A stretch of 28,523 nt of DNA, taken from the NCBI GenBank assembly GCA_023264435.1, contig JAHFMK010000001.1:1-28523 (forward strand), read 5' to 3'. This DNA is from Candidatus Kaiserbacteria bacterium. Its GTDB lineage: Bacteria > Patescibacteriota > Minisyncoccia > Phycocordibacterales > UBA918. The notes under the pieces are model-generated. The model saw only the letters and a program-made list of their open reading frames with translations, had not been told where the DNA came from and did no database searches. This document shows positions 706 to 28,339 of the stretch, piece by piece. The position numbers were made by a program, and so were the translations under genes. Position 1 is the stretch's first letter; the number at the start of each line of letters is the position of its first letter.

Positions 706-711
706 CGGTAC

Positions 712-3324: not shown

Positions 3325-3338
3325 ACAAATAATTCTTT

Positions 3339-4574: not shown

Positions 4575-4592
4575 ACGGTAAGTAGTATAGCA

Positions 4593-5321: not shown

Positions 5322-5325
5322 ACTC

Positions 5326-6096
5326 TTATTGAGAGACCGTACCCATGAAGCACCCAATACTATACGGGTATTCGTTGGTGATGTGATAGTGATATACGTT
5401 CGTTGCTACACCATTCTGCAATATCTCATGTGTATGTCCATGACATACATCCAGATTACTATTGGAAATAGTTACACCATTTTCAACACTTCCATATACA
5501 CCAAATCCATCGCGTGCATATCCAAAACTGCCATCAGTATTGGATGCATTTATGCTAGTATCAATATTTTTTCCTCGATATATAAACGACCCCGAGTGTA
5601 ACACACCAATAATACTCTCAGATATACATTGAGGTATTCCCGTAAATATGGGAACTGTCGGAATATGAGGGAATTGCATATTTTCGACTGCATTTGTTGG
5701 TGTTGTTGCACATACATACACGCCACCGATGTGTGGTGTTGAAACGACGGACTCTTGTACTCCTGATACTTCAGAAGTGCCTGAATAAGAAGAGACAGTG
5801 GTATCACTGTCAATGGATTTTTTTATCTCTGTTAATTCATTCTCTTTCGTTGTCTCAACATTGCTATCCGTGGTACGACGTAATGATGCACGCACACGGT
5901 CAATAAACCCCTGACTATCAAATTTTTTTGTTTCCTCGTTTTTCGTTACTCCATATGAATCACGCGATGTACCAAACACAACGTGAGACACTACTTCCCT
6001 GTTGAGTCCTGTGTATATATATCCCACAAAAAAAAGACTGGGAAGTAGTATCAGGCTCGCCGTCAAGCCGATTACCATATATTTTGTTCGAATCAT
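5326..6096 (-). CDS. Membrane-anchored YHYH-domain protein (degenerate), 256 aa
   Basis: N-terminal TM; GYARDGFGVYG, LDVCHGHTH, YHYH and EYPYSIGCF motifs. Start reassigned to ATG 6096 (TACTAT 7 nt upstream). Confidence 0.8.
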   Translation of the reverse strand: MIRTKYMVIGLTASLILLPSLFFVGYIYTGLNREVVSHVVFGTSRDSYGVTKNEETKKFDSQGFIDRVRASLRRTTDSNVETTKENELTEIKKSIDSDTTVSSYSGTSEVSGVQESVVSTPHIGGVYVCATTPTNAVENMQFPHIPTVPIFTGIPQCISESIIGVLHSGSFIYRGKNIDTSINASNTDGSFGYARDGFGVYGSVENGVTISNSNLDVCHGHTHEILQNGVATNVYHYHITNEYPYSIGCFMGTVSQ

Positions 6097-6152
6097 GCTC
6101 TGTATAGTACCGCATCTCAGAAATGATATACAGCTCACCTGTGGGCAGGTGA

Positions 6153-7442: not shown

Positions 7443-7444
7443 AC

Positions 7445-8362
7445 CTAATCACTCATCGTATTAAATCGAAAATATTCAGTGAGTCGTAGACCAAAATATC
7501 GTCCAATCATAATATTCATCGGTATCACTAGTAAAATAAGTTCTGGATACAAAATGAGTGTATCCTGTACTACAGTACTCGACGCAAGAAAATATCCAAA
7601 CAACCCCAGCATAAGTGTTGTGCTCGTAATTGAAAATGTCTCCGAAGCACTTTTATGTAACTGTACGGATACGATAGAATCTCCAAGGAGCATAAGAATG
7701 AGAATAGGAAAAATTGACAAACTGAGCACTTTATCAAAGTGAAGTATAGATGCAATCGTGAGTGCGCCGAACACAAATACCGCAAGCAGAAGCATCGAGA
7801 GTGAGCGCTTTGGATAAAACATAATCTGTATACGGGACAATAGTACTTTTGAAACATACGACGCTGTGAGTACCGCGAGCAAAATCAAAATACCCATCGT
7901 CACCCCGACCGCCACGAGTGCAAATGCAAGAATGACTGGTACCAACATATCAAGAGTTGGCAACCCCACCACAACACGCACAAAACTAACCAATGTTCCC
8001 AGAACTGGTGTGAGCAAAATAAGAAATATCGTATTTGCGGGAATACCATTTTGAACTGCTTCTTGCACCCAATAGGCAATAAAAGAAAATATTCCTGGTG
8101 ATTCCACTCGACGTGCCTCAAACAATGATAGGATGGCGACTTTTTCTGGCAAATTCTCAGCTTGTGTTACATCTTTTTTATTTGCCTCCGCAACATTGAT
8201 TTGATCAATAATATTAGATACCGATGACGAAGACTGTTCCGTTAAAACATCAGAAAATGCTTGTGCCTCTGTTATGGTCGAATTATGTTGTATTTCAGCT
8301 TTGACACTGATTGGGACAACCAGAAAGCACACTCCTAGTAATAAAATTATTTTTGTTCGCAT
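7445..8362 (-). CDS. 7TM-domain protein of the type found with transglutaminase/ATP-grasp operons; signal peptide, no transglutaminase domain (305 aa)
   Basis: GIPANTIFLILLTP..LVSFVRVVVGL, SIFPILILM and C-terminal YFGLRLTEYFRF. Start reassigned to ATG 8362 (MRTKIILLLG), which avoids overlap with rlmB. Stop is 2 nt from the ligase start. Confidence 0.85.
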   Translation of the reverse strand: MRTKIILLLGVCFLVVPISVKAEIQHNSTITEAQAFSDVLTEQSSSSVSNIIDQINVAEANKKDVTQAENLPEKVAILSLFEARRVESPGIFSFIAYWVQEAVQNGIPANTIFLILLTPVLGTLVSFVRVVVGLPTLDMLVPVILAFALVAVGVTMGILILLAVLTASYVSKVLLSRIQIMFYPKRSLSMLLLAVFVFGALTIASILHFDKVLSLSIFPILILMLLGDSIVSVQLHKSASETFSITSTTLMLGLFGYFLASSTVVQDTLILYPELILLVIPMNIMIGRYFGLRLTEYFRFNTMSD

Positions 8363-8364
8363 TG

Positions 8365-8391
8365 CATATATACTCTGACAGAATATATATG
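8365..8391. repeat. 27-bp imperfect palindrome immediately upstream of the 7TM start codon
   Basis: catatatactctg-a-cagaatatatatg; 12 of 13 positions pair. Partly low-complexity TA repeats. Confidence 0.5.
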
Positions 8392-8444
8392 AATTGTAAA
8401 GAGAAATGGGTATACATACACATGATATGTGTATCGGTACGGTA

Positions 8445-9194
8445 TTATTGTAATTTTTGTGGATGTCGCATACTCCATGCATAAAACACAATTGATGCAG
8501 CGACTGAAACATTCAATGATTCTACATGTGGAGACATTGGTATACGTAAAGGGATGTCACAGTGTTCACGTGTCTTCTTTCGAATACCATCTGCTTCATT
8601 GCCTAAAATAATTGCGGTTGGTTTTTCAAACAATTCATTCGTAACTGATTGTGTTGCATCACCAGCCAGACCATATATCCAAAATCCGCGTTGTTTTAAT
8701 TCATAGATTATCTGATTTACATTTCCAATACGTACTAATGGAATACGAAAGGCAGTGCCCACAGAAACTTTTATAACAGTCCCATTGAGTGGTGCTTGAC
8801 GATGATCAGGAATAAACACCGCCGAAATGCCAAGTGCTGTTGCTGAGCGAATAACCGCACCAACGTTGTGGGGGTCTTGTACCTCACCCAAAATTGCAAA
8901 CGCGCTCTCGTTCGTGACAATATGGGATGACATAAAATCTTCATATGTGCGTAAGAGTTTTGCTGGGGCTATTTCTGCAACAAAACCTTGATGAACCGCA
9001 TCAATAGGCACTCCCATAGGAGGTTTTTGTGCGGTGAACATTTTTTTTGGAATAGCAGTACGAGTGAGCACATCACGAATTTCATTGCTTTCACATCCCT
9101 CAACAAGATGAACAACTCTTACCACATCAGGTCGCATAGTAAGTGCCTCCATGACTGCATGCTTTCCATATATAAAAATGACTTCATCTTTCAT
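8445..9194 (-). CDS. rlmB: TrmH/SpoU family rRNA 2'-O-ribose methyltransferase (RlmB-like)
   Basis: IYGKHAVMEAL N-terminal domain, VQDPHNVGAVIRSA, ILGNEADGI, IPM...ESLNVSVAASI SPOUT motifs. Confidence 0.92.
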   Translation of the reverse strand: MKDEVIFIYGKHAVMEALTMRPDVVRVVHLVEGCESNEIRDVLTRTAIPKKMFTAQKPPMGVPIDAVHQGFVAEIAPAKLLRTYEDFMSSHIVTNESAFAILGEVQDPHNVGAVIRSATALGISAVFIPDHRQAPLNGTVIKVSVGTAFRIPLVRIGNVNQIIYELKQRGFWIYGLAGDATQSVTNELFEKPTAIILGNEADGIRKKTREHCDIPLRIPMSPHVESLNVSVAASIVFYAWSMRHPQKLQ

Positions 9195-9281
9195 ATCGAT
9201 GAGTGTACCGTGTACGTGTCATTCTGTGAAGTATACATTGCATATTGCTCAATACGTCCATCTATGGTCTACTACACAGCA

Positions 9282-9989
9282 ATGAAATCACGAGGGAAAA
9301 AAGGAACCGCATTTTGGGATGCTGAATATCGTGAAAGTGGACACTTTGCACTTTCGTTCACTCAAAGTGAGGATTTAGAAAAAGCAACGCGTTGGCTTAT
9401 TCGTGAATATGGTGGTACGTACCTCAATATCACCTCATCAGTGCTCGACCTTGGCTGTGGTAATGGAAGAAATCTTCTCTGGCTTGCACAAACCTTTGGA
9501 GTACGGGGTACAGGGTACGACATATCAGCAGAAGCGGTGAAGCAGGCTCGAGTGCAGAGTGAAAAAAACAAACTCAATTTGACCTATGTTGTGCGTTCTA
9601 TTGCAGGCACACTCTCGGTACCCGATGCTTCACAAACGCTTGTGCTCGACTTGATGACCTCTCACTTTTTAAACGCAGATGACCGAGTACAACTGATTGA
9701 TGAAATATTCCGTGTACTCAAACCAGGAGGTTTCCTTATATACAAAACATTCTTACTTGATGAAGATATGCATGCACGGAGAATGCTCACCGAATATCCT
9801 ACTCATGAAGAGAATACTTACATGCATCCACGCATTGGCATGCCAGAACATGTCTCAACCGAAGATGAGATTATTGCACTGTATGGTACAAAATTCACAA
9901 TACATAAAGTGTATCGTTCACATCGACATAAAGGAAAAGATGCGAAACGAAGGAGCATTATGGTATATCTGCAAAAACCTGAATTTTAA
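9282..9989 (+). CDS. Class I SAM-dependent methyltransferase (about 235 aa)
   Basis: VLDLGCGNGRN motif I, GYDISAEAV, FRVLKPGGFL. Start reassigned to ATG 9282 (alternative 9264); the 8988 start would overlap rlmB head-to-head. Confidence 0.88.
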   Translation: MKSRGKKGTAFWDAEYRESGHFALSFTQSEDLEKATRWLIREYGGTYLNITSSVLDLGCGNGRNLLWLAQTFGVRGTGYDISAEAVKQARVQSEKNKLNLTYVVRSIAGTLSVPDASQTLVLDLMTSHFLNADDRVQLIDEIFRVLKPGGFLIYKTFLLDEDMHARRMLTEYPTHEENTYMHPRIGMPEHVSTEDEIIALYGTKFTIHKVYRSHRHKGKDAKRRSIMVYLQKPEF

Positions 9990-12463
9990 TCCCCGCGATT
10001 AGTATCACCCACCACATCCTCAAAATCAGATGGCACAAAGGAAATGGTTTGTCCTCTTCGAATGCCCTGTTCGATAATTTTTCGTGCAATTCGCTCTTCA
10101 AGAATATCTTGCACCGCTCTTCGAATTGAGCGTGCACCAAATTGTGGGTCAAAACCATACCGCATAACAACATCAACTAACGCATCATCGACAGACAATT
10201 CATACCCTCGTTCACGAATTCGTTCTTGTAGTTCTTTAAGCATCAATTGTGCAATATGTCGTTGTTCGTCCATACTCAGAATATCAAATAAAACAACGGC
10301 ATCAAACCGATTGATAAACTCTGGTTTAAAAATACGTTGTTCAATTATCGAATGCACAACCATATCATGCTCATGTTTTAGATTTTTTCCTGCACTAACC
10401 AATGCTCGTATTGTTTCACTCCCTGCATTTGAAGTTGCTATGATGATAGTATTTCGTACATTAATATGTGCACCTCGTGCATCAGTAAATACCCCCTCAT
10501 CAAGTATTTGAAGGAATAAGTCGTGCACATCTTCACTCGCCTTCTCAAGTTCATCAAGGAGGAGTACGCCATAGGGATGCTCATGAAGCGCAGAAGAAAG
10601 TCTGCCTGCTCCTGACTGTGTACCAATAAGTCGTTCAAGTGCATCGACACCACTATATTCAGACATATCAAAACGAATCATTGAATCTTCGCTTCCAAAA
10701 AATGTATAGGCAAGTGCTTTCACTGTCTCTGTCTTCCCCACTCCCGTTGAACCAAGAAAAAGAAATGAACTCATCGGTCGATCTTTACTCTGAATACCTG
10801 CACGTGCTCTCCGCATAGCACCAGCAATAGCGGTAATAGCATCATGTTGACCAATCACACGTTCATGGAGCACTTCTTCGAGATGCATGAGTAAATCACG
10901 CTCCTTAGCATCTACTGGTCCAGACGGAATACCGGTCTTTTCTTGTACACATTGATCAACAAATGAATCGAGAATAAGTGTCACCCCCAATTGTTCTGCT
11001 TTTCCTGCAACTTCTGCAAGAAAGCTTACCGCTTTATCAGGCATGACACCATCCACAAGATAACGGTCAGCACTTTCTGCAACACGCGTGAGTGCAGGAT
11101 AGGTAAAAAATACATGATGTGTATGTTCATACCCCCACACTACTTCTTCGAGCACTCGCACAACACTCGAAATATCAGGATTCTCAATAGTGATTGTTTC
11201 GAAATATTGCAGAAGATTATGATTTGTTTCCAGTGACTGATGATAGTGATCATGGTCAACTGTCGTTATAATTTGCACCTGCGATGAAGTAAGAAATCTG
11301 CCGAAGAGTTCTGATACGTTCACACCCAGATGTGCCACACTTTCAATAAATGCATGCATTCGCTCAATCACAACAATAATATTTCCTGCACGTTCTGCGT
11401 GACTCATTAGACGCATGAATGCTCGTTCGAATTCCTCTTTTGTACTATATGTTGCAACAAATGCATCAGTATCAAATACAATAAGGCGTTTTGCAATAAG
11501 TGATTCAACGGACTTCCCTTCCTTCATTCTCCGTCCCATCTCTATAAGCATATCCATTTCACCTACACCGGGGTCACCAACCAGAATAACATTTGCTGAT
11601 TTCGTACGCGCAAGCACCGTTTCCATTTTTTGGATTACCTCGTTGGCATACGCTGCATCATGTATAAACAGTGAGAGTGCCGAAGTCGTATTAATATCAC
11701 GTGTAAAATGTTGTAACTCATACGCGACACCATATGAAAATTCACGACCAACACCTTTTATTTTCCCCAGATTATCTCTACTCCACCATCGAATATGATT
11801 TTTGTGCAGGAGTCGTACTCGTGAAACCCATTCATTTGCACCAAGAAAGAGATCCTTCGTTATACCATGTGCAAACAAAAATGAAATAAGGGTCTTATCT
11901 CTTTCAAGCAAAAACTCCCCCACATCTTGGAGCGTCAAAAAATAATGTGCCCGTATACTTAACGAATCAATTGAAATGTGTGTTCGTGTTTGTGATACAA
12001 AAGTATCTACCTCTGATGCGGTGATACCGAGACGGAACAATACTTCACGACCATAGGGAGATGCCATAAATCCATGAGTCATATCAGTGGGGTGAGATAT
12101 TCCAATTTGTGCAACCTCCATAGTAACACCTTCACCATCAACAAAATCCTCAGACAAAATTGAAGGCAATCCTCTGAAATAGAGAGTATTATAAAAAAAT
12201 GTCAGTTGTAATAATACTGTGTATGGACCAAGGAGTATCAAAAACCCAGCCGTAAGAAAACGTGCATCATTGAGTACGACACTCGTATCAAAATTACCTG
12301 CACGCATTGAGTAATACAATACAAATCCAATAAGTATACTTCCAAGCACTAATTCAGTACCCGCAAGAAAACGGAGTATCCGTCTCCGTGCAGTACGAGA
12401 GAGAATAGTATCAAGTGCTATTGCCGATATGTAAGTATGAATTTCTTGTGGTATTGTTTTCAT
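9986..12463 (-). CDS. Membrane-anchored ClpA/ClpB-like two-ring AAA+ ATPase with degenerate first AAA module (825 aa)
   Basis: Two N-terminal hydrophobic helices; D1 GDPGVGEM and VVIERMH (degenerate Walker A/B), RYL...MPDKA; D2 VIGQHDAI, FLFLGSTGVGKTE, RFDMSEY, LLLDELEKA, FKPEFINRFD, GARSIRR. Start reassigned to 12463, overlapping the upstream TGA (ATGA). Confidence 0.92.
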   Translation of the reverse strand: MKTIPQEIHTYISAIALDTILSRTARRRILRFLAGTELVLGSILIGFVLYYSMRAGNFDTSVVLNDARFLTAGFLILLGPYTVLLQLTFFYNTLYFRGLPSILSEDFVDGEGVTMEVAQIGISHPTDMTHGFMASPYGREVLFRLGITASEVDTFVSQTRTHISIDSLSIRAHYFLTLQDVGEFLLERDKTLISFLFAHGITKDLFLGANEWVSRVRLLHKNHIRWWSRDNLGKIKGVGREFSYGVAYELQHFTRDINTTSALSLFIHDAAYANEVIQKMETVLARTKSANVILVGDPGVGEMDMLIEMGRRMKEGKSVESLIAKRLIVFDTDAFVATYSTKEEFERAFMRLMSHAERAGNIIVVIERMHAFIESVAHLGVNVSELFGRFLTSSQVQIITTVDHDHYHQSLETNHNLLQYFETITIENPDISSVVRVLEEVVWGYEHTHHVFFTYPALTRVAESADRYLVDGVMPDKAVSFLAEVAGKAEQLGVTLILDSFVDQCVQEKTGIPSGPVDAKERDLLMHLEEVLHERVIGQHDAITAIAGAMRRARAGIQSKDRPMSSFLFLGSTGVGKTETVKALAYTFFGSEDSMIRFDMSEYSGVDALERLIGTQSGAGRLSSALHEHPYGVLLLDELEKASEDVHDLFLQILDEGVFTDARGAHINVRNTIIIATSNAGSETIRALVSAGKNLKHEHDMVVHSIIEQRIFKPEFINRFDAVVLFDILSMDEQRHIAQLMLKELQERIRERGYELSVDDALVDVVMRYGFDPQFGARSIRRAVQDILEERIARKIIEQGIRRGQTISFVPSDFEDVVGDTNRGD

Positions 12464-16975: not shown

Positions 16976-18211
16976 CTATTCATACCGCAATGCTTCAATA
17001 GGGCTTTTCTTTGATGCTTGATGTGCAGGATAAATACCAAATATGAGACCTACAACCACAGACACTCCAACGCCAATAAATGCTCCAAGTACAGGGAATG
17101 TAAATGACCAATTTTCTGCAATGGTGCGAGATAACACCACCGCAGTAATGGCAGAAACCAATGCGCCAAATATAATTCCAATCACTCCCCCAATACCTGT
17201 GAGTATGATTGCTTCGGTGAGAAATTGTCGCAGAATATCTTTGCTTCGTGCACCGAGTGCTTTTCGTAAACCAATTTCTTTGGTACGTTCTGACACAGAA
17301 ACAAGCATAATATTCATAATGCCAATACCACCCACCACCAATGATATCGCAACCACAGCAACCAAAAACGAAGTAAATACGTTCACAATTGTTTCAATAC
17401 GCTTAATAACATCTTCTTGTGTTTGTACATTAAAATCGTCATCTTCACCAAAACCAATATGGTGTGCTTCACGCATGGTGAGCACAATATCATACGCCAT
17501 CTTCAACGCATTCTCAGGTGCATCAGCTTGTATCATCACTTCATTATAGAAATCATTTCCCGTAATGTATGTCTGTGCTGTTGTATATGGAATAACCACC
17601 ATTTTGTTTATGGTTAAGGGCCCTACATCTGAGGTGTTTGTAAAAACACCAACGATTTTAAATTTTTTATCTTTAATTTGAATGTATTCGCCCACAGCAT
17701 TTCCATTACCAAAAACATCTTCTTTGATTGTATCTCCGATAATCGCCACTCGTGCATTTTGATTTATATCATCTTGTGTGAAGAGCGAACCATGTGCTAA
17801 CGTGAGATTAAGCATATCAGAAATAAAATCTGCTGAACCTCCAAATACAAGTGCTCGAAAACGCTGTCCGCGATACTCAATGGGATCAGGAACCATAACT
17901 GATGGTGCAACCATTTTAAGATTTGGGACATTTTCTTTTCGTTTCAGAAGCTCTACATCATGCTTCGTAAGTGAACGTGCAAACAATACATTCGTGATAT
18001 CGGTACTATCCTTACCTGGACGAAGAATCACGGTTTCAGGACCCAGTCCACTCACTTGATCGAGAATGAGTTTTTGTGCTCCTTCACCCAAAGACATAAT
18101 GATGATGATTGCAGAAATACCAATGACAATACCGAGAATAGTAAGTGCCGATCGTGTTAATTGCGAGCTTAATCCTCGAAGTGCTGTAATAAAAATATGT
18201 TTAAATTTCAT
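16976..18211 (-). CDS. MacB/YknZ-type ABC transporter permease
   Basis: RSALTILGIVIGISAII, large extracytoplasmic domain, VGGIGIMNIMLVSVSERTKEIGLRKALGA, QFLTEA, GIYPAHQASKKSPIEALRYE. Confidence 0.95.
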   Translation of the reverse strand: MKFKHIFITALRGLSSQLTRSALTILGIVIGISAIIIIMSLGEGAQKLILDQVSGLGPETVILRPGKDSTDITNVLFARSLTKHDVELLKRKENVPNLKMVAPSVMVPDPIEYRGQRFRALVFGGSADFISDMLNLTLAHGSLFTQDDINQNARVAIIGDTIKEDVFGNGNAVGEYIQIKDKKFKIVGVFTNTSDVGPLTINKMVVIPYTTAQTYITGNDFYNEVMIQADAPENALKMAYDIVLTMREAHHIGFGEDDDFNVQTQEDVIKRIETIVNVFTSFLVAVVAISLVVGGIGIMNIMLVSVSERTKEIGLRKALGARSKDILRQFLTEAIILTGIGGVIGIIFGALVSAITAVVLSRTIAENWSFTFPVLGAFIGVGVSVVVGLIFGIYPAHQASKKSPIEALRYE

Positions 18212-18215: not shown

Positions 18216-18935
18216 CTATTTCGTAAAATCTTTATTCGCGTTCCTTCTATTCAATATAGGTTTATCACTTTCAATTGCACCATCTACCAAATAAATCATT
18301 CTGTCTGCATGTTCTGCGGTAAATGTTTCATGCGTAATAAGAATAACCGTATGTCCCAATTCATCATGCAATCGCTGTAGCGTTTGCATCACTGCCTGTC
18401 CTGTCTTTGAATCCAAATTCCCTGTTGGTTCATCCGCGAAAATAACCTTTGGCTCATTGACGAGAGCACGTGCAATGGCGGTTCTTTGTTTTTCTCCACC
18501 TGAAAGTTTATTTGTTTCATATCCCAAACGATGGGACATGCCAACAATTTCAACCACCTCCTCAACTCGTTTTTTCCATTCCTGTTCAGGACGACCTGAA
18601 TACAATAATGGTAATTGCACATTCTCAAATACAGTTTGTCTCGGAAGTAAATTAAATGACTGAAATACAAAACCCATTTCTATATTTCGAATACGTGCTA
18701 TTTCATCATCAGTATGCTCCTCAAAACGTCTTCCATTAAATCGATATAATCCCGTGGTTAATTCTGACAAGAATCCAAGAATATGGAGTAATGTTGATTT
18801 ACCTGATCCCGAAGGCCCCATAATAGAAACAAATTCACCCGCCTCAATCGTAAATGATACATCTTTTAAGACAGTAGTATTGATTTCATCACCATAGAAA
18901 GTTTTTTCTAACTTTTCTACCTCAAAAAGACTCAT
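18216..18935 (-). CDS. ABC transporter ATP-binding subunit (MacB/YknY/LolD type)
   Basis: GPSGSGKST, GFVFQSFNLL, LSGGEKQR, IFADEPTGNLD, ILITHE. Confidence 0.96.
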   Translation of the reverse strand: MSLFEVEKLEKTFYGDEINTTVLKDVSFTIEAGEFVSIMGPSGSGKSTLLHILGFLSELTTGLYRFNGRRFEEHTDDEIARIRNIEMGFVFQSFNLLPRQTVFENVQLPLLYSGRPEQEWKKRVEEVVEIVGMSHRLGYETNKLSGGEKQRTAIARALVNEPKVIFADEPTGNLDSKTGQAVMQTLQRLHDELGHTVILITHETFTAEHADRMIYLVDGAIESDKPILNRRNANKDFTK

Positions 18936-18940: not shown

Positions 18941-20548
18941 TTAGTTCTGCTTAATTTTTGCAATTGCTTGTTCATTTGCAAACGTTATGATAGGTTCCCC
19001 ACCACTCAGTCCACTTAAAACCTCAGTCATACCATTTGACCCTCGAAGTCCTGTGGTAATTGGCACTTCTGATACTTCGGTTCCATTCTGTATCACACGA
19101 ACAAACTTTCCTTCTTTGTTTTCATAAATAGCCCGTGTTGGAATGGCGATTACATTATGTCGTGTAGCGGTTGTTATCGTAATTTCAGTAGTGAGCCCAT
19201 CCTTGATCATTTCATTTTCCTTATCAAACGCAAGCGTTACCTCAAAAATACGAACCCCCGACACGACGGTAGCATTTGGTGCAACTTTTGTTACCACAGC
19301 AGTAAACGTTTTTCCATCATACGCATCAAACGTAACCACTGCAGTATCTCCAACAGAAACCTCTGCGATATCCACCTCAGAAATATTTACCGTAAGCTCA
19401 AAATCATTTTTTGAGCTTATAGAAAGTACAGGTATGCCTGCGGTAATAATCTGCCCCACATCTGCATTGACCGCAGTGACAACTCCTGCAAAGGGTGCTT
19501 TTATTATTGTATTTTCATATGCAACCTGTGCTTGTGAAAGTGAAGCGTGCATCTGCTCAACCAGAGCACGTTGTGCATTTACTCGTTCGTCACGTGCTGA
19601 ACTTACTACTTGTGTTAATTGAGACTTACTTAGCAGAAATTGAGCTTCCGCTGATTTCACTGCGTTTTCAGCACTTGCGACAGCAAGATTGCGTGTTTCA
19701 ACCACCGCATGATATGCATTCAAATTAGTAAGATAACTACTCGACCGAGTATTAGGAATAGGAATTTCCCATTCTGTTCGTTTCGCAAAATTATCAGGAA
19801 ATTGCAAATATAAACCACGACTACCAATTGGTGATGGTGAAATGGTTGATACCGAATCTGTACCAATCTCCAAACCAGTCACACGATACGATGACCCTGA
19901 AGGGGCATTTGAATCATACAACGCTACTCGATATACACCATCTTCGGTGCCATGATATGTTCCCGTAATGGTAGGACTTACATACGAATATGGAGAATCG
20001 CTTCGTTCATCACTTATCAGATACGCCTGAAGACCAGTTGAACGCAGTGTTTTTTCTGCGTTAGATACAAGCTGATTTTGTTGTGCAATAACATCTGCAA
20101 GGTTTTGTTTTGCATTTTCAAGTAAGGTTTCTACTGAGACCACCGACGATTCTGTCACTGCACGACTCTTATCATCTGCTCCTGAGACTAACTCATGGAG
20201 ACGTGCCTCCTCTGCTTGTAATCTTGACTGTGCCAACAGAATGTCCGTTTTTTGTTGTGTTGCCTCAGTTGTCATAAGTACATCACCTGAACTGACAACA
20301 TCACCTTCATGTACGAGAATGCTCGTAACCTTACCTCCTCGTTCAAACGCAAGATTGACTGCATGTGTGGGTTGCACATATCCTGTTTCTGTAACTTCCT
20401 CAATCACATCGCCATGCTCAACAACACCTGTTTCAACGCCATCGGGCAATGTTTTTGGTCGAGTGTGCATATACCAATACCCCAATCCAATTACTATAAT
20501 ACTTAAAAAAAATGATATATATTTTTTTGAAAGGATATTTTTTTTCAT
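18941..20548 (-). CDS. Membrane-fusion/adaptor protein (MacA/YknX-like) with an extra domain in the helical hairpin (535 aa)
   Basis: TM anchor, lipoyl half (GGKVTSILVHEGDVV), coiled coil, beta-rich insert, coiled coil, IKAPFAGVV, beta-barrel (VNISEVDI..VSVGD..VTFDAY), membrane-proximal domain (IPTRAI..TEVLSGL). Start reassigned to ATG 20548. Confidence 0.9.
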   Translation of the reverse strand: MKKNILSKKYISFFLSIIVIGLGYWYMHTRPKTLPDGVETGVVEHGDVIEEVTETGYVQPTHAVNLAFERGGKVTSILVHEGDVVSSGDVLMTTEATQQKTDILLAQSRLQAEEARLHELVSGADDKSRAVTESSVVSVETLLENAKQNLADVIAQQNQLVSNAEKTLRSTGLQAYLISDERSDSPYSYVSPTITGTYHGTEDGVYRVALYDSNAPSGSSYRVTGLEIGTDSVSTISPSPIGSRGLYLQFPDNFAKRTEWEIPIPNTRSSSYLTNLNAYHAVVETRNLAVASAENAVKSAEAQFLLSKSQLTQVVSSARDERVNAQRALVEQMHASLSQAQVAYENTIIKAPFAGVVTAVNADVGQIITAGIPVLSISSKNDFELTVNISEVDIAEVSVGDTAVVTFDAYDGKTFTAVVTKVAPNATVVSGVRIFEVTLAFDKENEMIKDGLTTEITITTATRHNVIAIPTRAIYENKEGKFVRVIQNGTEVSEVPITTGLRGSNGMTEVLSGLSGGEPIITFANEQAIAKIKQN

Positions 20549-20555
20549 GGAGCGT

Positions 20556-20561
20556 ATTATA
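20556..20561 (-). promoter_or_regulatory. Consensus -10 box (TATAAT) 7 nt before ATG 20548; internal promoter for the ABC module
   Basis: Minus strand reads TATAAT-acgctcc-ATG in the ~80-nt gap after the MFS gene. Confidence 0.55.
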
Positions 20562-20630
20562 TTTGAAAGCAACAAACGTATTCTCTCTCGATATTCATTA
20601 TACTCTGTGCACCACATAATTGAGTAGTGG

Positions 20631-22142
20631 TTATGCACCGATTATCACAGCTTCTACTCTTTTTTTTCTCTTTGTATCACGGAGAAAGAGTGCCACAACA
20701 ACTCCTGATGCCATTACACTCGATGCAATAAGAAATACGGTGCCATACGCAGCAACCTGTGCTTTCAGAATAACAAGTGTGCTCACCATTTGAAGTGTTT
20801 GCGGATCAGTGGTATTGAGAACAGTGTCCTGCCCAATCTGGAGTACATTCGACTCAATGAGATTACTAAGAATTGTACTAAAAAATGCGATACCAACTGC
20901 TCCTGCTATATTACGAACAAGATTGAGTACTGCGGAAGAGACACCAACTTCATTTGCAGGTACTGCATTCGTTGCAGCAGCGGTGAGTGGTGCCATTCCC
21001 AATCCGAGTCCGAGTGCAAAAATAATAAGTGGTATAGTGAGGTCAAGAGACGTAGTCTTGACATCAAGTCCAGAAAATAGATAAATACCGAGGGCTGAAA
21101 TCGCCATACCTGCACCGGCAAGATACCGTAAAGGGACTACCTGCGACAACTTACCTCCGAGCGGCGCAGCGACAAACATTGCAAGTGCCATTGGTACAAA
21201 TAAAAGTCCTGCTTGTGTTGCATCAAATCCTAAATATGTTTGTGCGAACACGGGAATAAGAAACATTGCTCCCATCATGCCTGAAAAAGAAATGAAGGAG
21301 AGTATGAGTACATTTGTAAATACAGGGTTAGAGAATAGTTTCAAATCAACAATTGGATCTTTCTCTCGTTTCTCCACTCTGTAAAATAAAATTGAAAAAA
21401 TAAGTACCACACTATATGCACTTATACTTTCAAATGATACCCATCCCCAGTCTCGGCCACGTTCAAGCACAAGCACGAGTGATGAGAGTACTATGCCCAA
21501 TATGAGTGCCCCTTTATAGTCAAATCCTTTATTCGTATCAACAGGTTTATCATGTGGTAAATACCAAAGTGTCATAAAAATACCAAGAATACCAATTGGT
21601 AAATTGATATAGAAAAGCCACCGCCATGAAAAATTATCAATCAAGGGACCACCTATGAGTGGTCCCAGTGCTGCTGACACGGCAAATGAAGCAGACCAAA
21701 TACCGAGTGCCTGTGTTCGTGCATTTGGGTCAGTAAATGTTCGTGCAATAATCGCCATTGCGGTGGGATATACCGCTGCACCCACCAAGCCTTGCACCAC
21801 CCGAAAAAAGACCATTGATGAGAGATTCCACGCAAGACCTGCAAAAACTGAGATAAACGTAAATCCTACAAAACTCCACAAATAAATTACTCGATTTCCT
21901 AACTTGTCACCCAACTTACCGAACACAGGTACAAAAACCGCGTTTGAAATAATATACGCAGTTGCAATCCATCCTGCACTCGACACTGAAATTTTAAAGT
22001 CATCGATCATGCCTGGCAATCCTAGATTAACCACCGTTCTATCGAGACCAATAAGCAGTGTTCCCACCATAACGGTAATGAGCACGAGCCATGGTGAGTG
22101 TGATGGCTTTGTGGTATCTATTATCGTTGTGTTCTGTGCCAT
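20631..22142 (-). CDS. DHA2 (EmrB/QacA-type) MFS efflux pump
   Basis: LDRTVVNLGLP, GKLGDKLGNR, RVVQGLVG, GPLIGG..SWRWLFYINLPIG, LNLVRNIAGAVGIA; about 14 TM. Confidence 0.95.
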   Translation of the reverse strand: MAQNTTIIDTTKPSHSPWLVLITVMVGTLLIGLDRTVVNLGLPGMIDDFKISVSSAGWIATAYIISNAVFVPVFGKLGDKLGNRVIYLWSFVGFTFISVFAGLAWNLSSMVFFRVVQGLVGAAVYPTAMAIIARTFTDPNARTQALGIWSASFAVSAALGPLIGGPLIDNFSWRWLFYINLPIGILGIFMTLWYLPHDKPVDTNKGFDYKGALILGIVLSSLVLVLERGRDWGWVSFESISAYSVVLIFSILFYRVEKREKDPIVDLKLFSNPVFTNVLILSFISFSGMMGAMFLIPVFAQTYLGFDATQAGLLFVPMALAMFVAAPLGGKLSQVVPLRYLAGAGMAISALGIYLFSGLDVKTTSLDLTIPLIIFALGLGLGMAPLTAAATNAVPANEVGVSSAVLNLVRNIAGAVGIAFFSTILSNLIESNVLQIGQDTVLNTTDPQTLQMVSTLVILKAQVAAYGTVFLIASSVMASGVVVALFLRDTKRKKRVEAVIIGA

Positions 22143-22145
22143 ATA

Positions 22146-22787
22146 TTATTTAATATATATCCATGTACGAGCTGACATACCTGTTTTTAATTCAGGATAT
22201 TTTGAAACATCAAACGATACATAGATATTAAATTTTTTGATTGGACGTTTGTCCGAAATAGAAAATGCAATACCTGTTTCACTTGAAGCAGAGCTAATGT
22301 CATCAACCGTCCCAACATATTCATTTTGAGGAAATGCATCAACAGTAAATTTTACTCGTTGTCCTACTGCTACTTTACTCAGTCCACCAGTTTCTTCTAC
22401 TTGGGCAACCACACGCATCTTCGTATCAGCAATGACAGAGAGTAGAGTTTGTCCAGGAGCATAATACGAACCAATTACTTTTGGTACACCATCAACAACA
22501 CCATCTTCTTTTGCGTACAAAGTCTCCGAACCAACAAGTGCAACTGGTGTACTTTTCTGAACTCGTTCACCATCTTGTACATAGATAGTATTAAGTATTC
22601 CTGGTGCAGAAGGCGTAATGTGGACAATCGGTGCTTCTAGATATGACTTCTCAACAGACACAACGCCTACCGTTGATTGCCAGTAAATATATCCTGCCAA
22701 AGAACCAAAAATCACCACCAGTGCACTTACACTTTGAAACCATGGTGTTCGTATCAGACTTACTTTTTTTTCATTTATATGAGACAT
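22146..22787 (-). CDS. Short EmrA/HlyD-like adaptor lacking the alpha-helical hairpin
   Basis: TM, lipoyl halves joined directly (QDGERVQKSTPVALVG-SET-LYAKEDGVV), beta-barrel (VAVGQRVKFTVDAFP, LKTGMSA). Confidence 0.85.
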   Translation of the reverse strand: MSHINEKKVSLIRTPWFQSVSALVVIFGSLAGYIYWQSTVGVVSVEKSYLEAPIVHITPSAPGILNTIYVQDGERVQKSTPVALVGSETLYAKEDGVVDGVPKVIGSYYAPGQTLLSVIADTKMRVVAQVEETGGLSKVAVGQRVKFTVDAFPQNEYVGTVDDISSASSETGIAFSISDKRPIKKFNIYVSFDVSKYPELKTGMSARTWIYIK

Positions 22788-22803
22788 AGATTTACAATGA
22801 TTA

Positions 22804-24081
22804 TTAGATACTTACTTCATCACCAACTGAAAGACCTGCTACCACCTCAGTATTATCGAGATCATTGATACCAATTGTTACTTCTCGTTCAATAACACCA
22901 CTCGCAGTTTTTAGTTGTACATAATACTTTCCTTCACGCTTATAAATCGCACGATTAGGAATCATCACCGCAACATCTTTGAGAGACATACTTGTTGAGA
23001 GTTCAATTGCAGGAATATTTGGTGTTGCAATTTCTCCGAGTGAAATACGTATCGCAGTGATTTTTCCATCACTCGGTGCCAGAATGCGACGATTATTAAA
23101 TGCTGATTGTGCGATCTGCAATGCCCCACGCGCACTCTCCACTTGTGCCTGTGCCGTTGCAACATCTTCTGGTCGTGCAGATGAAACCACCGATGCAAGA
23201 TTTGCTTCAGCTTGACTGACTGTTGATTGAGCAGTTGCAATTGTCTGATTTTTTGTTTGAAGTGCTGATTGATATGCGGATTCCCTTGTTACATAATCAG
23301 TTGCCTTCTTATTTGGAAGAGAAATTATCCATGTGCGATTTGCACGAGCATCTTTAGGAAATTGAATATACAATCCAGAATTTCCGAGTGGTTGTGGTGT
23401 AATAATAAATGCTGATTCAGTACCCTCAACAAGTCCTGATGTTCGATATGATAAACCTGACTGTGCAGCAGAAGCGTATGTTTTTACTATAATATTCCCC
23501 TCTTTTCCAAGCGTATAACTCCCCGTTATCTTTGGAGCTTCTTCTTCTTCAGTAGAATCAATTTTCTCTGGATAGGCCTGTGGTGACACATTAAGAAGAG
23601 CGGTATACGCATTTTGTACCAATACAGATTGTTGTTGTGTCACTTCCGCCAAATTGACTTTTGCATTTTCAAGTGCTGTGCGTGCAATATCAATAGTTGG
23701 TCCTGTCGCACCATTGAGTACCTTCTGATAATTTGCGTTTGCAATACTCAAGGCTGCCTCTGCCTGCATAATTGGTCCTTGTGTATTTTCCTGATCTAGA
23801 GATGCAAGTACCATATCTTTTTTTACCTCATCACCAACGTGTACCGGAATGTCATCAATACGGCCTCCTGCAAGAAATCCAAGTGAGAGATGTTGTGCAG
23901 ATTTTGGACTCATGTCTTTATTGAGCGAGATACTCCCAGAAGTTGCTCGAATAAATTGCGATACTGAAATACTTGTACGTTGCATATCGTGCAATACATA
24001 GAGAATACCCCCTGCAATAACAAGCGACACCGTAATAACGAGTAATGGTTTATGTAAAAATGCAATAAGTTTTGTTTTCAT
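22804..24081 (-). CDS. HlyD-family adaptor with hairpin insert but lacking the beta-barrel domain
   Basis: TM, GGRIDDIPVHVGDEVKK, coiled coil, beta-rich insert, coiled coil, ILAPSDGKI, then directly IPNRAIY...TEVVAGLSVGD. Confidence 0.85.
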   Translation of the reverse strand: MKTKLIAFLHKPLLVITVSLVIAGGILYVLHDMQRTSISVSQFIRATSGSISLNKDMSPKSAQHLSLGFLAGGRIDDIPVHVGDEVKKDMVLASLDQENTQGPIMQAEAALSIANANYQKVLNGATGPTIDIARTALENAKVNLAEVTQQQSVLVQNAYTALLNVSPQAYPEKIDSTEEEEAPKITGSYTLGKEGNIIVKTYASAAQSGLSYRTSGLVEGTESAFIITPQPLGNSGLYIQFPKDARANRTWIISLPNKKATDYVTRESAYQSALQTKNQTIATAQSTVSQAEANLASVVSSARPEDVATAQAQVESARGALQIAQSAFNNRRILAPSDGKITAIRISLGEIATPNIPAIELSTSMSLKDVAVMIPNRAIYKREGKYYVQLKTASGVIEREVTIGINDLDNTEVVAGLSVGDEVSI

Positions 24082-24083
24082 GA

Positions 24084-24503
24084 TTATGCTTCAATTATAC
24101 GTGCAATAATTCTTTCTAATTCTGCTTTATCGTTCACTGAAAGACACGCAGTTATCTCATCAAGAATTTTTGTTTTTTGTTTTTGTAGTCCATTAATTTG
24201 TTTTTTTGCTTTTTGAGTCAAGCGAATATGCACTACTCTTCGGTCTTCATCATCACGTGTTCTATGAACTAACTCTTGCTTCTCCAACTTCTCAATAAGC
24301 GCGGTTGCTGAAGGTGGCTTGACGTTAAGATGATGTGCAATTGCGTCCATACTCTGGTTCTTTGCTTGTCCCACAAACCACAAAACCTCTAGTTGTGCGA
24401 TGGTTAAATCATGTTTTAGATTATTATCCCGCATACGCTCATTAATCTTGCGTCTTAGATGTAAGAGTAATTCGGGCAAACGTGATGTATTCGTATTATT
24501 CAT
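24084..24503 (-). CDS. MarR family transcriptional regulator
   Basis: LTIAQLEVL, SMDAIAHHLNVKPPSATALIEKLEKQELVHR...DRRVVHIRLT. Confidence 0.95.
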   Translation of the reverse strand: MNNTNTSRLPELLLHLRRKINERMRDNNLKHDLTIAQLEVLWFVGQAKNQSMDAIAHHLNVKPPSATALIEKLEKQELVHRTRDDEDRRVVHIRLTQKAKKQINGLQKQKTKILDEITACLSVNDKAELERIIARIIEA

Positions 24504-24606: not shown

Positions 24607-24996
24607 TTATGAGGTGAATTCTATCTCAAATGGATACATCCCCATGCCACAAGTACCATTGAGTATACCTACCTCGTGCACACCAATGTTTATCTCAGTA
24701 ACACCTGAGGCGGGGAGCGTACTGCTTATGTCCATACTTGGAATACGCACCGATGCCGAACAATCGAACGTACCATTTGTATTAAAACGGACAATCGTAG
24801 GGATACCTGCTTTGGCAGTACTCTTTCGCGGAAGATATCCTCCCTTTGCGGTAACATCAACAATTTGTGTACCATTAACAATCGATACATTATTTTGAGG
24901 AACGTGAACAGCGGTATTCGTAGCATTCTTTGAAAAAAATAATGCTCCACCGATGAGAAAGAGTGCGATAATAATTGAAATTATAGTTATTTTCAT
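24607..24996 (-). CDS. Membrane-anchored cupredoxin-domain protein
   Basis: TM anchor; GGYLP..TAKAGIPTIVRF, FDCSAS, GTCGMGMY C-terminal Cys/Met motif typical of cupredoxins found beside Cu-ATPases. Confidence 0.85.
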   Translation of the reverse strand: MKITIISIIIALFLIGGALFFSKNATNTAVHVPQNNVSIVNGTQIVDVTAKGGYLPRKSTAKAGIPTIVRFNTNGTFDCSASVRIPSMDISSTLPASGVTEINIGVHEVGILNGTCGMGMYPFEIEFTS

Positions 24997-25002
24997 AGAA
25001 TG

Positions 25003-25008
25003 ATTATA
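25003..25008 (-). promoter_or_regulatory. Consensus -10 box (TATAAT) 6 nt before ATG 24996
   Basis: Minus strand reads TAG(stop)-TATAAT-cattct-ATG. Confidence 0.5.
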
Positions 25009-26040
25009 CTAAAAATTAAAGACGGGAGGAATAATACCCAGTATAACCAGACTGTTAATGAGATTAAATACTGCAAAAAGAATGACAATCAATCCTGCTG
25101 ATTTGAAAAAAATACCTGACCGTGCATTCTTGGCAATACTGAATGAACCAAAACTAATGAGTGAAAGAACGGGCAATGTACCGAGTGCAAATACAAGCAT
25201 CGTAAGACCGCCACTTATAAAACTTCCCGTCGAAAGTGCATAAAGTTGCATTGACTGTGTAAATCCACACGGGAGAAAAAATGTTGCCACGCCCACAAGA
25301 AGTGGTGTAAGTGTATGGTTGAGTGTTGCGACACCATGTGCACGACGTGCAATAAACTTTGGTACGGTGATTTGCCATTTTTTTGCACCCTGAAATATAT
25401 CTAAAAGATTGATACCGAGCATAAGCATGACAACAGCAATAATGACATTGAGTGTAACGGTCGCAATCGTATTCAATGTAAACGCTGATCCCAATGCACC
25501 AATAACCCCGCCAAAAATAAAGAAAGATACGATACGCCCTGCATGAAACATGAGTTGTGGTTTCACTCGACTTCCCTCTTTTGCAAATGTTGCAGACATT
25601 GAAAGCAAAAGTCCCCCCACTACCGCCATGCATGTAGAAAGTGATGCGATAACACCAATCACAAATGCTGTACCGTATGTCACCTCACCTCCACTCACCA
25701 CATTCACGATACCCATATTTTGGAGCGCAATAAAAACTGCAATAAAGACAAGTGCAACTGGTACCGCAGTTTTGAAGTCCTGCCACTGTGGTGCATGTAC
25801 TTGTTGTTCGACAGACACTGTATAGCCATGTGATAAAAGCGGTGCAGTCAATTCCTTCGCAATTACTTCGGGAGACTTTCCCTCAAACGCACCAACAATG
25901 TCAACAGAATGATTTTTGAGATGTGCCTTTACTTCATGCACATTCGACAAACTCCCGAGTGTCTGTTCTGTCAGTAGTACACACGCATTGCAATGCATAC
26001 CATGCACATGAAAAGTATATTTTTGCTCAGTTGTTTTCAT
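25009..26040 (-). CDS. HMA domain fused to a DsbD_2/TauE-SafE-like membrane domain
   Basis: VHGMHCNAC metal-binding loop; LSTCMAVVGG, FHAGRI, FFLPCGFTQ, FALGTLP. Confidence 0.88.
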   Translation of the reverse strand: MKTTEQKYTFHVHGMHCNACVLLTEQTLGSLSNVHEVKAHLKNHSVDIVGAFEGKSPEVIAKELTAPLLSHGYTVSVEQQVHAPQWQDFKTAVPVALVFIAVFIALQNMGIVNVVSGGEVTYGTAFVIGVIASLSTCMAVVGGLLLSMSATFAKEGSRVKPQLMFHAGRIVSFFIFGGVIGALGSAFTLNTIATVTLNVIIAVVMLMLGINLLDIFQGAKKWQITVPKFIARRAHGVATLNHTLTPLLVGVATFFLPCGFTQSMQLYALSTGSFISGGLTMLVFALGTLPVLSLISFGSFSIAKNARSGIFFKSAGLIVILFAVFNLINSLVILGIIPPVFNF

Positions 26041-26041
26041 A

Positions 26042-28339
26042 TTATAATAATTTTATATGCTTTAAACGTAATGAATTAAGCACCACCGTTACACTCTCAA
26101 ATGCCATGATTGACCCCGCAATGGCAGGGCTAAGTGTCCACCCATACACAGGAAAGAGAATACCCGCTGCAATCGGGATACCCACTGAATTGTATCCGAA
26201 TGACCAAATGAGGTTTTGCCATACCGTGCGATTGGTTCGTTTTGCGAGATTGACTGCCTCGGCAACTTTGCCAATGTCACCATTGAGTAAAACAATGTCC
26301 GAACTCTCAATTGCAATGTCTGAGCCATCACTCATAGATATTGCTACATCAGCTTGTGCAAGTGCTGGTGAGTCGTTGACGCCATCTCCAATCATCGCCA
26401 CCTTCAATCCTTTTTTTTGAAGGTCAGCAATGATACGTAATTTATCAGCGGGCTTCACCTCGGTATGCACCTCATCAATACCAAGATGCATCGCTACCGC
26501 TTCCCCTGTTTTTTTATTATCACCTGTTGCCATCACAACACGAAGCCCCAATGCTTTGAGTTTTGCAATTTCTGCCTGTGCATCTGCTTTTATCGTGTCA
26601 TGAATCTTCACGAGTGCGAGTACTGTTTTTGTATCAGCCAAATATAATTCTCGTCCACTTTCAAATTGAGCACCATCAAATTGCTTTTTCAAAGCATCTT
26701 CACTGACTCCCGTTACTTCACTCATATACCCAATTGATCCGAGATAATAAGTATTTCCTTCATAATGTGCCTTAAGTCCCTTACCGGTAATTTCTGAAAT
26801 ATCAGAAACAGATATGTTTTGTACTTTTGATACGCTGAGCCATTCTGCAATACTTGCAGAAATTGGATGTCGTGATGACTTTGTCATGGCGTAAATAAGC
26901 GATTGATGAAATGTTGCTTTTGTACTCTTCTCGTCACCCACATCATGTGCACAAAATATTCCTTCTACTGACAACTTATTCTCAGTGAGTGTACCCGTCT
27001 TATCAAAAACAATTGCCTGCACACCTGCAAGTTTTTCAAGACTTTCTGCATTTTTGATAAGAATACCCCGTCTTGCACCCGTTCCAACACCCGTGATAAT
27101 AGCGGTTGGCGTTGCGAGCCCCAAAGCACAGGGACACGCAATCACGAGGACCGCCATCATGGTAGAAAGTGCAAATGCGAGTGCTTTTGCGAAGCCCATT
27201 GAGGCAGGTGCAAAAAACATCCATGATGCAAACGTAATCACCGCAATCACGAGTACAATATATGTAAACACACCCGATATTTTATCAGCAGTTTTTTCTA
27301 TTGGTGCTTTTGAATTTTGTGCATCTTCAACAATCGTAATGATGTGTGAGAGTGCAGTATCCTTTGCGTCTTTCTCTACACGTATTTTAAGGATTCCCTG
27401 AAAATTTTGCGTTCCTGCAAAGACATTCGCCCCTACAAGCTTATCGACTGGTACCGACTCCCCCGTAAGGTTTGACTCATCCACGCTCGACGTGCCGAAG
27501 GCTACCACACCGTCCACAGGGATACGTTCATTTGGCTTTACAATTACCACATCGCCAATAACCACCTGCTCAATGGGAACTTCTATCTCACTCCCATTTC
27601 GCTCAACGAGTGCAGTCTTGCTTGTGAGCTCAGCGAGTTTTTGCAACGCTTCATTTGTCTTTCGTTTTGCATTTGTTTCAAAATATTGTCCCAGTGCAAT
27701 GAGTCCAATCACCACAATGACGACATCATAAAAATTTGAGGTCACCTCAAGGTAAGGTGCAAGTGTTTCCTCAAATGCAGTCACTGCAAAGGAATAGATG
27801 AATGCAACGATAGTAGAAATACCGACAAGCACATCCATGTTGGCAATACCCGTGCGAAGGAATATCCATACCGCTTTAATGTATCGCCGTCCAATACCAA
27901 ATAATACGAACGTTGCGAAGATAGGCATGAGATGATGAAACACTTCATATACTGTCGTCGACATTTTTGGTACAAGTGCATTATCAGCAAGTGCTTCCCA
28001 AAACATCATCACAAACGAGAAGACGACCATAGGAATAACAAATCTCATTTCAAATGCAATCGCCTGTTCACCCATCGCATGATGCATGGTGCGGTGATCC
28101 ATTCCGTTCATTGTGTCTTTTTTTGCATCATCCTCAAATATATACCCCAATGGTGCAATATCACGATTCATCATTTCAAGTGAAAGCTCTGGACCTGAAA
28201 ATGTTACCTTTGCTTTCTCATTGGCAAGCCCCACCGAAACAGAGGCAACACCTGGAACTTTACCCACTTTATCTTGAATGAGTGTGACACAACTCGCACA
28301 GTGCATCCCCTTAATCGTATATATTTTGGCGGTACTCAT
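26042..28339 (-). CDS. copA: Copper-type heavy-metal P1B ATPase
   Basis: GMHCASC, ANMDVLV, TGES, IACPCALGLATP, FDKTGTLT, HP, TGDN, GDGVNDSPAL, GYN in the penultimate TM. Confidence 0.93.
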   Translation of the reverse strand: MSTAKIYTIKGMHCASCVTLIQDKVGKVPGVASVSVGLANEKAKVTFSGPELSLEMMNRDIAPLGYIFEDDAKKDTMNGMDHRTMHHAMGEQAIAFEMRFVIPMVVFSFVMMFWEALADNALVPKMSTTVYEVFHHLMPIFATFVLFGIGRRYIKAVWIFLRTGIANMDVLVGISTIVAFIYSFAVTAFEETLAPYLEVTSNFYDVVIVVIGLIALGQYFETNAKRKTNEALQKLAELTSKTALVERNGSEIEVPIEQVVIGDVVIVKPNERIPVDGVVAFGTSSVDESNLTGESVPVDKLVGANVFAGTQNFQGILKIRVEKDAKDTALSHIITIVEDAQNSKAPIEKTADKISGVFTYIVLVIAVITFASWMFFAPASMGFAKALAFALSTMMAVLVIACPCALGLATPTAIITGVGTGARRGILIKNAESLEKLAGVQAIVFDKTGTLTENKLSVEGIFCAHDVGDEKSTKATFHQSLIYAMTKSSRHPISASIAEWLSVSKVQNISVSDISEITGKGLKAHYEGNTYYLGSIGYMSEVTGVSEDALKKQFDGAQFESGRELYLADTKTVLALVKIHDTIKADAQAEIAKLKALGLRVVMATGDNKKTGEAVAMHLGIDEVHTEVKPADKLRIIADLQKKGLKVAMIGDGVNDSPALAQADVAISMSDGSDIAIESSDIVLLNGDIGKVAEAVNLAKRTNRTVWQNLIWSFGYNSVGIPIAAGILFPVYGWTLSPAIAGSIMAFESVTVVLNSLRLKHIKLL

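Follow-up and report, generated by a model that had tools for sequence, protein, structure and literature searches.

Adaptors of TolC-dependent efflux pumps reach the outer-membrane channel with the tip of a helical hairpin. An RLS docking motif has been defined for MacA, AcrA and HlyD, and the tip of MacA, which bears this motif, meshes with TolC (PMC3391258). Related systems exist that have no outer-membrane partner. In Spr0693-Spr0694-Spr0695 of Streptococcus pneumoniae and in YknX-YknYZ of Bacillus, the adaptor gene is followed by genes for a MacB-type ATPase and an FtsX/MacB permease. Spr0693, from a single-membrane bacterium, is a hexameric tube that reaches ~154 Å from the membrane; its hairpin is plain, with an alpha-barrel 56 Å high and a disordered loop of ~22 residues at the turn (PMC5768738). 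It is still an open question why adaptors with long hairpins are kept by bacteria that lack an outer membrane (Symmons et al., 2015, PMC4446572). Here we describe two adaptors, A and C, that carry a folded beta domain, about 95 residues long (the insert), exactly where Spr0693 has its loop. They are encoded in a stretch of 28,523 nt (the window, to which all coordinates refer unless a locus is named) of contig JAHFMK010000001.1, assembly GCA_023264435.1, from a Candidatus Kaiserbacteria bacterium. This genome belongs to the candidate phyla radiation (CPR, Patescibacteria). Adaptors A and C are paralogues that separated long ago within a CPR-restricted subfamily of MacA/YknX-type adaptors that is distinguished by the domain at the hairpin turn.

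The adaptor C module repeats the gene order of the Spr0693/YknX systems and, like them, has no outer-membrane partner. The protein scores 172 bits against the NCBIfam model TIGR01730 (cut-off 94.9) and matches the Pfam families HlyD_3 (E 2.6e-16), HlyD_D23 and Biotin_lipoyl_2. An AlphaFold2 model was computed as a monomer from an alignment of 37 sequences (mean predicted local distance difference test score, pLDDT, 87.5). The best Foldseek match of this model was MacA in MacAB-TolC (E 1e-21), followed by EmrA, AcrA and MexA. Matches to the MacA structures from E. coli (5NIK, 3FPP) and A. actinomycetemcomitans (4DK0) ranged from E 1e-21 to 4e-17, and MacA shares with adaptor C the domain order and the transporter class. 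Spr0693 (PDB 5XU0/5XU1) was matched as well (5xu0, E 1e-11). The domains of adaptor C are those of the Spr0693/YknX adaptors: membrane anchor, split lipoyl domain, hairpin, beta-barrel and membrane-proximal domain. In the model, a membrane helix (residues 8-28) is followed by lipoyl strands (63-94), by helices 97-122 and 127-170 and by strands from 176 to 264; then come helices 272-315 and 318-345, the second half of the lipoyl domain (strands 348-378), the beta-barrel and the membrane-proximal domain. The two lipoyl halves therefore flank the hairpin helices 97-170 and 272-345. With a MacB-type ATPase, an FtsX permease, an adaptor and no outer-membrane factor, the module is a MacAB-like pump of the Spr0693/YknX type.

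The difference lies at the hairpin turn. Instead of the plain turn of the Spr0693/YknX type, adaptor C has arms of ~74 residues each that meet at a folded and conserved beta domain of 95 residues. If straight, its hairpin would measure ~110 Å (1.5 Å per residue), about twice the height of the Spr0693 alpha-barrel. Compared with MacA, adaptor C lacks both the RLS motif and a TolC partner, and the tip is taken by the insert.

Adaptor A belongs to a pump of another energy class. It resembles EmrA (EmrAB-TolC; 4TKO, 8ZAL) in its long hairpin, in its association with a major facilitator superfamily (MFS) transporter and in the presence of a MarR-type regulator. However, EmrA is a single chain that includes the beta-barrel and docks to TolC, whereas here the barrel resides on a separate protein, adaptor B, the insert resides on A, and there is no TolC. 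At its N-terminus adaptor A has a membrane anchor; its other parts are a split lipoyl domain, a long hairpin that bears the insert at the tip, and a membrane-proximal domain. Biotin_lipoyl_2 is found in A as it is in C, the score of A falling under the cut-off. Residues 65-363 and 372-423 of A align to C, while residues 381-452 of C are without a counterpart, leaving A without a beta-barrel. The missing barrel is supplied by adaptor B, which combines it with a membrane anchor and has neither hairpin nor insert. Both A and C adjoin transporter genes, the MacB ATPase and permease following C and the MFS transporter following A and B; 14 of 18 related loci likewise have a transporter gene beside the adaptor. 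By their lipoyl domain and hairpin and by their transporter neighbours, A and C are membrane fusion proteins of the HlyD-MacA-AcrA superfamily, the barrel being part of C and, for A, residing on B. An earlier interpretation made from the DNA sequence alone (the sequence-only reading) had seen in this locus the best candidate for an undescribed system. We cannot follow it there: both pumps are of common types, MacB and MFS, served by membrane fusion protein adaptors, and what is new is a single domain restricted to one lineage.

This domain is homologous in the two adaptors. The insert cores of A and C align without gaps and are identical at 34 of 77 positions (44%, E 2e-21), within a full-length alignment that covers lipoyl domain, hairpin and insert with 38% identity across 317 residues (E 5e-55). 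Homologous blocks had been noticed in the sequence-only reading at 19748-20035 and 23311-23589, and both proved correct, the ranges including a variable linker before the core. Its placement of a non-helical block at the hairpin tip also held. In the full model of adaptor C the strands of the insert lie between the hairpin helices with a pLDDT of ~90; modelled alone from an alignment of 40 sequences, the insert forms seven strands (pLDDT 84 overall, >90 over the core). Among 264 full-length relatives, the lengths of the two hairpin arms co-vary (r 0.90; arm 2 spans 44-85 residues), and the length of the insert stays steady at 72-86 residues and is unrelated to arm length (r 0.12). A fixed domain would be expected to behave in this way at the turn of a hairpin whose arms gain and lose heptads in pairs. 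We regard it as nearly certain that the element is a folded, strongly constrained and lineage-restricted domain at the hairpin turn.

The source organism has neither an outer membrane nor TolC. No match to OEP (PF02321) above the cut-off was obtained in the source genome, which is 85% complete, and none outside adaptor genes in 22 other genomes that carry the domain; control genomes gave matches. The sequence-only reading had proposed a check for anticorrelation with TolC; all carriers searched lack a TolC-family gene. Weak OEP matches occur in the window at 19511-19693 and 23089-23283 (minus strand), both below threshold and both in hairpin arm 2 just past the insert. Similar matches were found in adaptor arm 2 at G114:C10:46236-46481 and in four other carrier genomes (best 26.5 bits, cut-off 22). 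Because all of them lie inside adaptor arm 2, we rejected them as TolC genes; they probably reflect shared coiled-coil composition, but their placement is the same throughout. The RLS motif (RxxxLxxxxxxS/T) is absent from adaptors A and C. Family-wide, it occurs within the 46 residues before the insert in 3 of 264 members, compared with 5 of 264 shuffled controls, and within the 39 residues after the insert in 0 of 264. Both hallmarks of TolC-dependent tripartite pumps, an OEP gene and the RLS motif, are therefore missing from these pumps.

What could the tip of such an adaptor do? Cryogenic transmission electron microscopy of ultra-small, probably CPR, cells revealed a surface layer and no outer membrane, and showed the cells attached to hosts (PMC7906910). 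On the model of MacA and Spr0693, the adaptors would stand on the transporter as hexameric tubes, each topped at its far end by a ring or 'crown' of the six tip domains. Such a crown would hold the hairpin barrel together and, where the tube meets the cell wall or surface layer, would shape or guard its exit, taking the place of the TolC-docking interface of double-membrane bacteria. To this best explanation, a crown of six members closing off the adaptor tube at the wall or surface layer, we assign a probability of roughly 40 to 50%.

Conservation is one ground for seeking a function at this site. Between A and C, identity amounts to 44% in the insert core, 34% and 40% in the two arms and 35-37% in the lipoyl halves; across the family, pairs of members are on average 48% identical in the insert, compared with 33% in the arms and 34% in the other domains. 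The sequence-only reading had considered the insert to be better conserved than the flanking coils, which is right, though the difference is modest for this pair and becomes clearer across the family. Among the 264 relatives, which were gathered by insert similarity, 14 of the 77 columns of the insert core are at least 90% conserved compared with 0-4 in any other region, and entropy is 1.77 bits in the core and 2.1-2.5 bits elsewhere. That the insert is the most conserved part of the adaptor points to a genuine function where the tube ends distally. The invariant positions are mainly Gly, Pro, Tyr and Trp, and the best conserved motifs are found at the boundaries with both helices. The same pattern would suit a mere structural clamp or spacer, a diverged immunoglobulin-like (Ig-like) beta-sandwich that caps the turn and keeps the long coiled coil in register, with no partner and no role at the exit: the invariant residues are fold-determining, a rigid cap would be conserved most at its boundaries, and other CPR adaptors have a different, apparently helical elaboration of the hairpin. 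Yet ordinary adaptors, as well as CPR adaptors whose plain hairpins have ~75 residues in each arm (L170, L171), fold without any cap, and conservation above that of every other domain is more than is usual for a passive spacer. A purely structural role appears quite improbable to us.

Further indications in favour of a distal function such as the crown come from the genes around insert-bearing adaptors. At 11 of 18 related loci, a MacB ATPase and one or two FtsX permeases lie directly downstream of the adaptor; three more have an ATPase match alone beside it, and at one the short adaptor and an MFS transporter follow as in the window. Altogether, insert adaptors stand beside MFS pumps in the window and in L014, P0264 and P0053. 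Where no transporter gene adjoins, the neighbours at three loci and in part at a fourth encode Wzy_C (O-antigen-ligase-like)/TPR membrane proteins, a TPR protein, a protein of ~1,150 residues without a Pfam match and a subtilase. The occurrence of the same domain next to MacB, next to MFS or next to no transporter speaks for a task at the distal end and against one in recognising the substrate or the transporter. A recurrent extra neighbour, and hence a candidate partner of the tip, was sought across 19 loci, but only transporter genes, MarR and unrelated genes recur. The sequence-only reading had offered a cap or nozzle, an engagement of wall or surface layer (S-layer) and a contact with a host cell; the data are compatible with each of these, but no recurrent neighbour gene favours one version. 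As to the last, the tip might touch the host of a probably episymbiotic bacterium, so that the pump would be a conduit towards that host. The support for this consists of the host-attached, ultra-small lifestyle of the phylum (PMC7906910) and the distal position of the domain. The operons, however, are MarR-regulated and have the make-up of drug or peptide efflux pumps, no effector-like genes are found at the 19 loci, the estimated reach of the adaptor (~20 nm) hardly extends beyond the cell's own envelope, and the domain is present in just 6% of the phylum. We consider host contact very improbable.

We also searched for a known family or fold. Neither insert matched Pfam-A (E up to 10) or NCBIfam (E up to 1). 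When 40 family members were compared with Pfam, merely scattered matches at chance level were obtained (E 0.006 or weaker), and precomputed Pfam lists for homologues contain adaptor domains only. At the structural level, a Foldseek search of the insert model against the PDB gave no match with E <0.001, the best being the Wzc periplasmic domain (E 0.36). VIA-align against 48,161 chains ranked FlgL (Z 5.8), FlgK, Wzc and FliD highest, with Z values of 5.8-4.1 that lie below the chance level of Z 7-8 stated for the tool. The beta domains set between coiled-coil helices in the flagellar junction and cap proteins FlgL, FlgK and FliD (Pfam Flagellin_IN), together with the periplasmic domain of Wzc, are the nearest shapes and likewise place a beta domain at the end of a helical hairpin; with such scores and no sequence similarity, this is a resemblance only. 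Among AlphaFold DB clusters, the top match was a protein of 136 residues that is 40% identical and probably a fragment of a family member, followed by weak Ig-like and flagellar matches. This cluster carries the name 'MBG domain', which we discarded as an automatic label, Pfam MBG being absent in 40 family members. No significant match to the insert model was found among the BFVD and Swiss-Prot models. In the ESM Atlas, the top four rows were CPR adaptor clusters (Minisyncoccota, Nomuraibacteriota; TM 0.69-0.76). FliD and Flagellin_IN clusters (TM 0.64-0.68) and phage proteins came next, in a range of TM 0.61-0.69 into which one more CPR adaptor cluster was interleaved. In the literature on adaptors (reviews, the Spr0693 and RLS papers and a full-text search), no folded domain at the hairpin tip is described. 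Judged from its model, the insert appears to be a beta-sandwich without a demonstrable relative. The statement of the sequence-only reading that it cannot be assigned to a known family thus still applies, now including characterised adaptor domains, and the structural check that it had suggested, a monomer prediction with a similarity search, has returned a seven-strand domain at the tip with no significant fold match.

The faint likenesses that remain bear on a further possibility, an anchor. In this case the tip domain would bind peptidoglycan, another wall polymer or an S-layer protein and so fix the end of the tube, which would make a closed ring unnecessary. The insert weakly resembles surface-protein beta-sandwiches (SbsA Ig-like domains, TM 0.55-0.58) and the Wzc periplasmic domain, it sits furthest from the membrane in cells that have a surface layer (PMC7906910), and Wzy_C/TPR envelope proteins surround the adaptor at the transporterless loci. 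The fold matches, though, all lie below chance expectation, there is no match to the wall-binding families LysM, SLH or PG_binding, and none of the genes recurring at the 19 loci encodes a candidate partner. On balance, such an anchor seems unlikely.

The distribution of the domain was determined by an exhaustive HMMER search, in which a two-sequence profile was run against 1.84 billion representatives. The sequence-only reading had recommended a profile search of CPR and other genomes; this one yielded 506 protein clusters at E <=0.001 (360 at E <=1e-10), and every match with a taxon label is from the CPR. Nearly all matching proteins are ~500 residues long with the match at residues 160-290, and the short ones that we examined are adaptor fragments, indicating that the domain is seen only inside adaptor hairpins. 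Samples of the genomes of individual phyla were surveyed with a 40-sequence profile. The domain was present in 24 of 401 Patescibacteria genomes, from several families, and absent from all 1,374 genomes surveyed in four other phyla (Bacillota, 0/391; Chloroflexota, 0/301; Pseudomonadota, 0/381; Actinomycetota, 0/301). The Pseudomonadota result speaks against the insert being a common feature of TolC-partnered pumps in double-membrane bacteria, which would have undermined the sequence-only reading. A lone match in Chloroflexota (E 3.5e-4) contains six stop codons and was dismissed as noise. An HlyD_3-type adaptor of some kind was found in 85 of 191 Patescibacteria genomes; with ~45% of genomes having an adaptor and ~6% having the insert, the insert marks a minority subfamily.

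Other Patescibacteria adaptors are enlarged in a different manner. At loci L153-L169 (e.g. G138:C2:453000-458500, G097:C13 and G020:C1), adaptor frames of 600-724 residues have no match to the beta insert but 270-400 residues between the lipoyl halves. The middle part of this region seems helical and is rich in N, S, T and D, and several of these proteins share short motifs. Their sequences suggest a second, different elaboration of the hairpin in Patescibacteria.

The insert-bearing adaptors themselves have a long history. A cassette of a MarR gene, a head adaptor (lipoyl domain, hairpin and insert but no barrel), a short barrel adaptor and an MFS transporter recurs on CPR contigs: in the window at 20631-24503, in L173 at 5588-9223, in L175 at 130-4013, in L014 at 7240-11406 and, as P0264, on 18 contigs. 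This recurrence identifies the split of the adaptor into two chains as a conserved design and not as damage. A maximum-likelihood tree of 31 members unites the adaptors that lack the barrel and are linked to MFS transporters (A, P0053, P0264 and three of 345-355 residues) in one clade (support 100/100) and places adaptor C in a separate deep clade (98/98). A is 53% identical to P0053, which comes from the same cassette in another genome, compared with 38% to C. Separate, well-supported clades with the nearest relatives in other genomes indicate that A and C are old paralogues and that the insert is older than their split. Divergence of the insert tracks that of the remainder of the protein (Spearman 0.42-0.46). 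The sequence comparisons fit one early insertion, after which the adaptors diversified onto different pumps. On L175, whose contig bears a close relative of adaptor A, genes for the cytochrome oxidase subunits COX_ARM, COX1, COX3 and COX4_pro lie directly downstream of the MFS gene (4020-7830), which is unusual for a CPR-type genome.

Several points weigh against the crown. Hexamer formation is itself assumed from analogy, and the structure models are monomers (adaptor C and the insert alone), so that a ring, its pore size and the orientation of the domain to the tube axis lie beyond them. The gathering of relatives by insert similarity favours the insert in the conservation comparison, and conserved Gly, Pro and aromatic residues fit the maintenance of a fold as well as an interface. 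With the domain in ~6% of Patescibacteria, it is no general requirement of TolC-less pumps in the phylum. Finally, at four loci (L015 4181-10886, L016 1133-13334, L021 and L028) the adaptor has no adjacent transporter gene. A more far-reaching version of the crown, in which the six tip domains would make up a self-contained exit duct or gate that is docked at wall or S-layer and functionally replaces TolC, is conceivable but doubtful. If it were true, CPR pumps of two energy classes would end in a protein nozzle of their own, and there would be a two-component trans-envelope conduit specific to ultra-small bacteria without an outer membrane.

The CPR envelope is hard to study, and few of these organisms have been cultured. 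The insert family offers a tractable object, being a small, confidently modelled domain (core pLDDT ~90) with hundreds of natural variants, and it could reveal what TolC-less adaptor tubes connect to in this envelope. It also matters for annotation: the proteins are now labelled 'efflux RND transporter periplasmic adaptor subunit' despite their ATP-binding cassette (ABC) or MFS neighbours and a domain that is not covered by any model.

The features of the locus are listed in Table 1. The cluster comprises seven co-directional genes on the minus strand in the order MarR, adaptor A, adaptor B, MFS, adaptor C, MacB-type ATPase and MacB/FtsX permease, with intergenic gaps of a few bases except for ~80 bases ahead of adaptor C.

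Table 1. Genes and insert regions of the adaptor cluster, with window coordinates and the evidence for each assignment.
Feature	Coordinates	Strand	Evidence
MarR-family regulator, first in cluster	24084..24503	-	Pfam MarR E 2.1e-15; position kept in related cassettes
Adaptor A, 425 aa	22804..24081	-	Alignment to adaptor C; NCBIfam adaptor models match below cut-off
Adaptor A, core of tip insert, residues 183-259	23305..23535	-	Translation; family profile E 5.9e-38
Short adaptor B, 213 aa	22146..22787	-	Pfam HlyD_D23 E 1.4e-12, HlyD_3 E 7.9e-11
MFS transporter, 503 aa	20631..22142	-	Pfam MFS_1 E 3.2e-62
Adaptor C, 535 aa, full MacA/YknX-type	18941..20548	-	TIGR01730, Pfam, Foldseek, AlphaFold2
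Adaptor C, core of tip insert, residues 192-268	19745..19975	-	Translation; family profile E 7.2e-40
Adaptor C, entire non-helical block, residues 171-271	19736-20038	-	AlphaFold2 strands between 176 and 264
MacB-type ABC ATPase	18216..18935	-	Pfam ABC_tran E 2.1e-33
MacB/FtsX-type permease with extracytoplasmic core domain	16976..18211	-	Pfam MacB_PCD E 5.7e-39, FtsX E 4.8e-21

The open frame of adaptor C extends upstream to a GTG at 20638; its start was placed at the ATG at 20548 because homologues measure 533-536 residues. The nearest named relatives of this protein are from Candidatus Nomurabacteria and Paceibacterota. The genome assembly amounts to 628.6 kb in 105 contigs. A metal-handling block on the minus strand (24607-28339) lies immediately upstream of the MarR gene and encodes a cupredoxin-like protein, a DsbD_2/HMA membrane protein and a CopA-type P-type ATPase.

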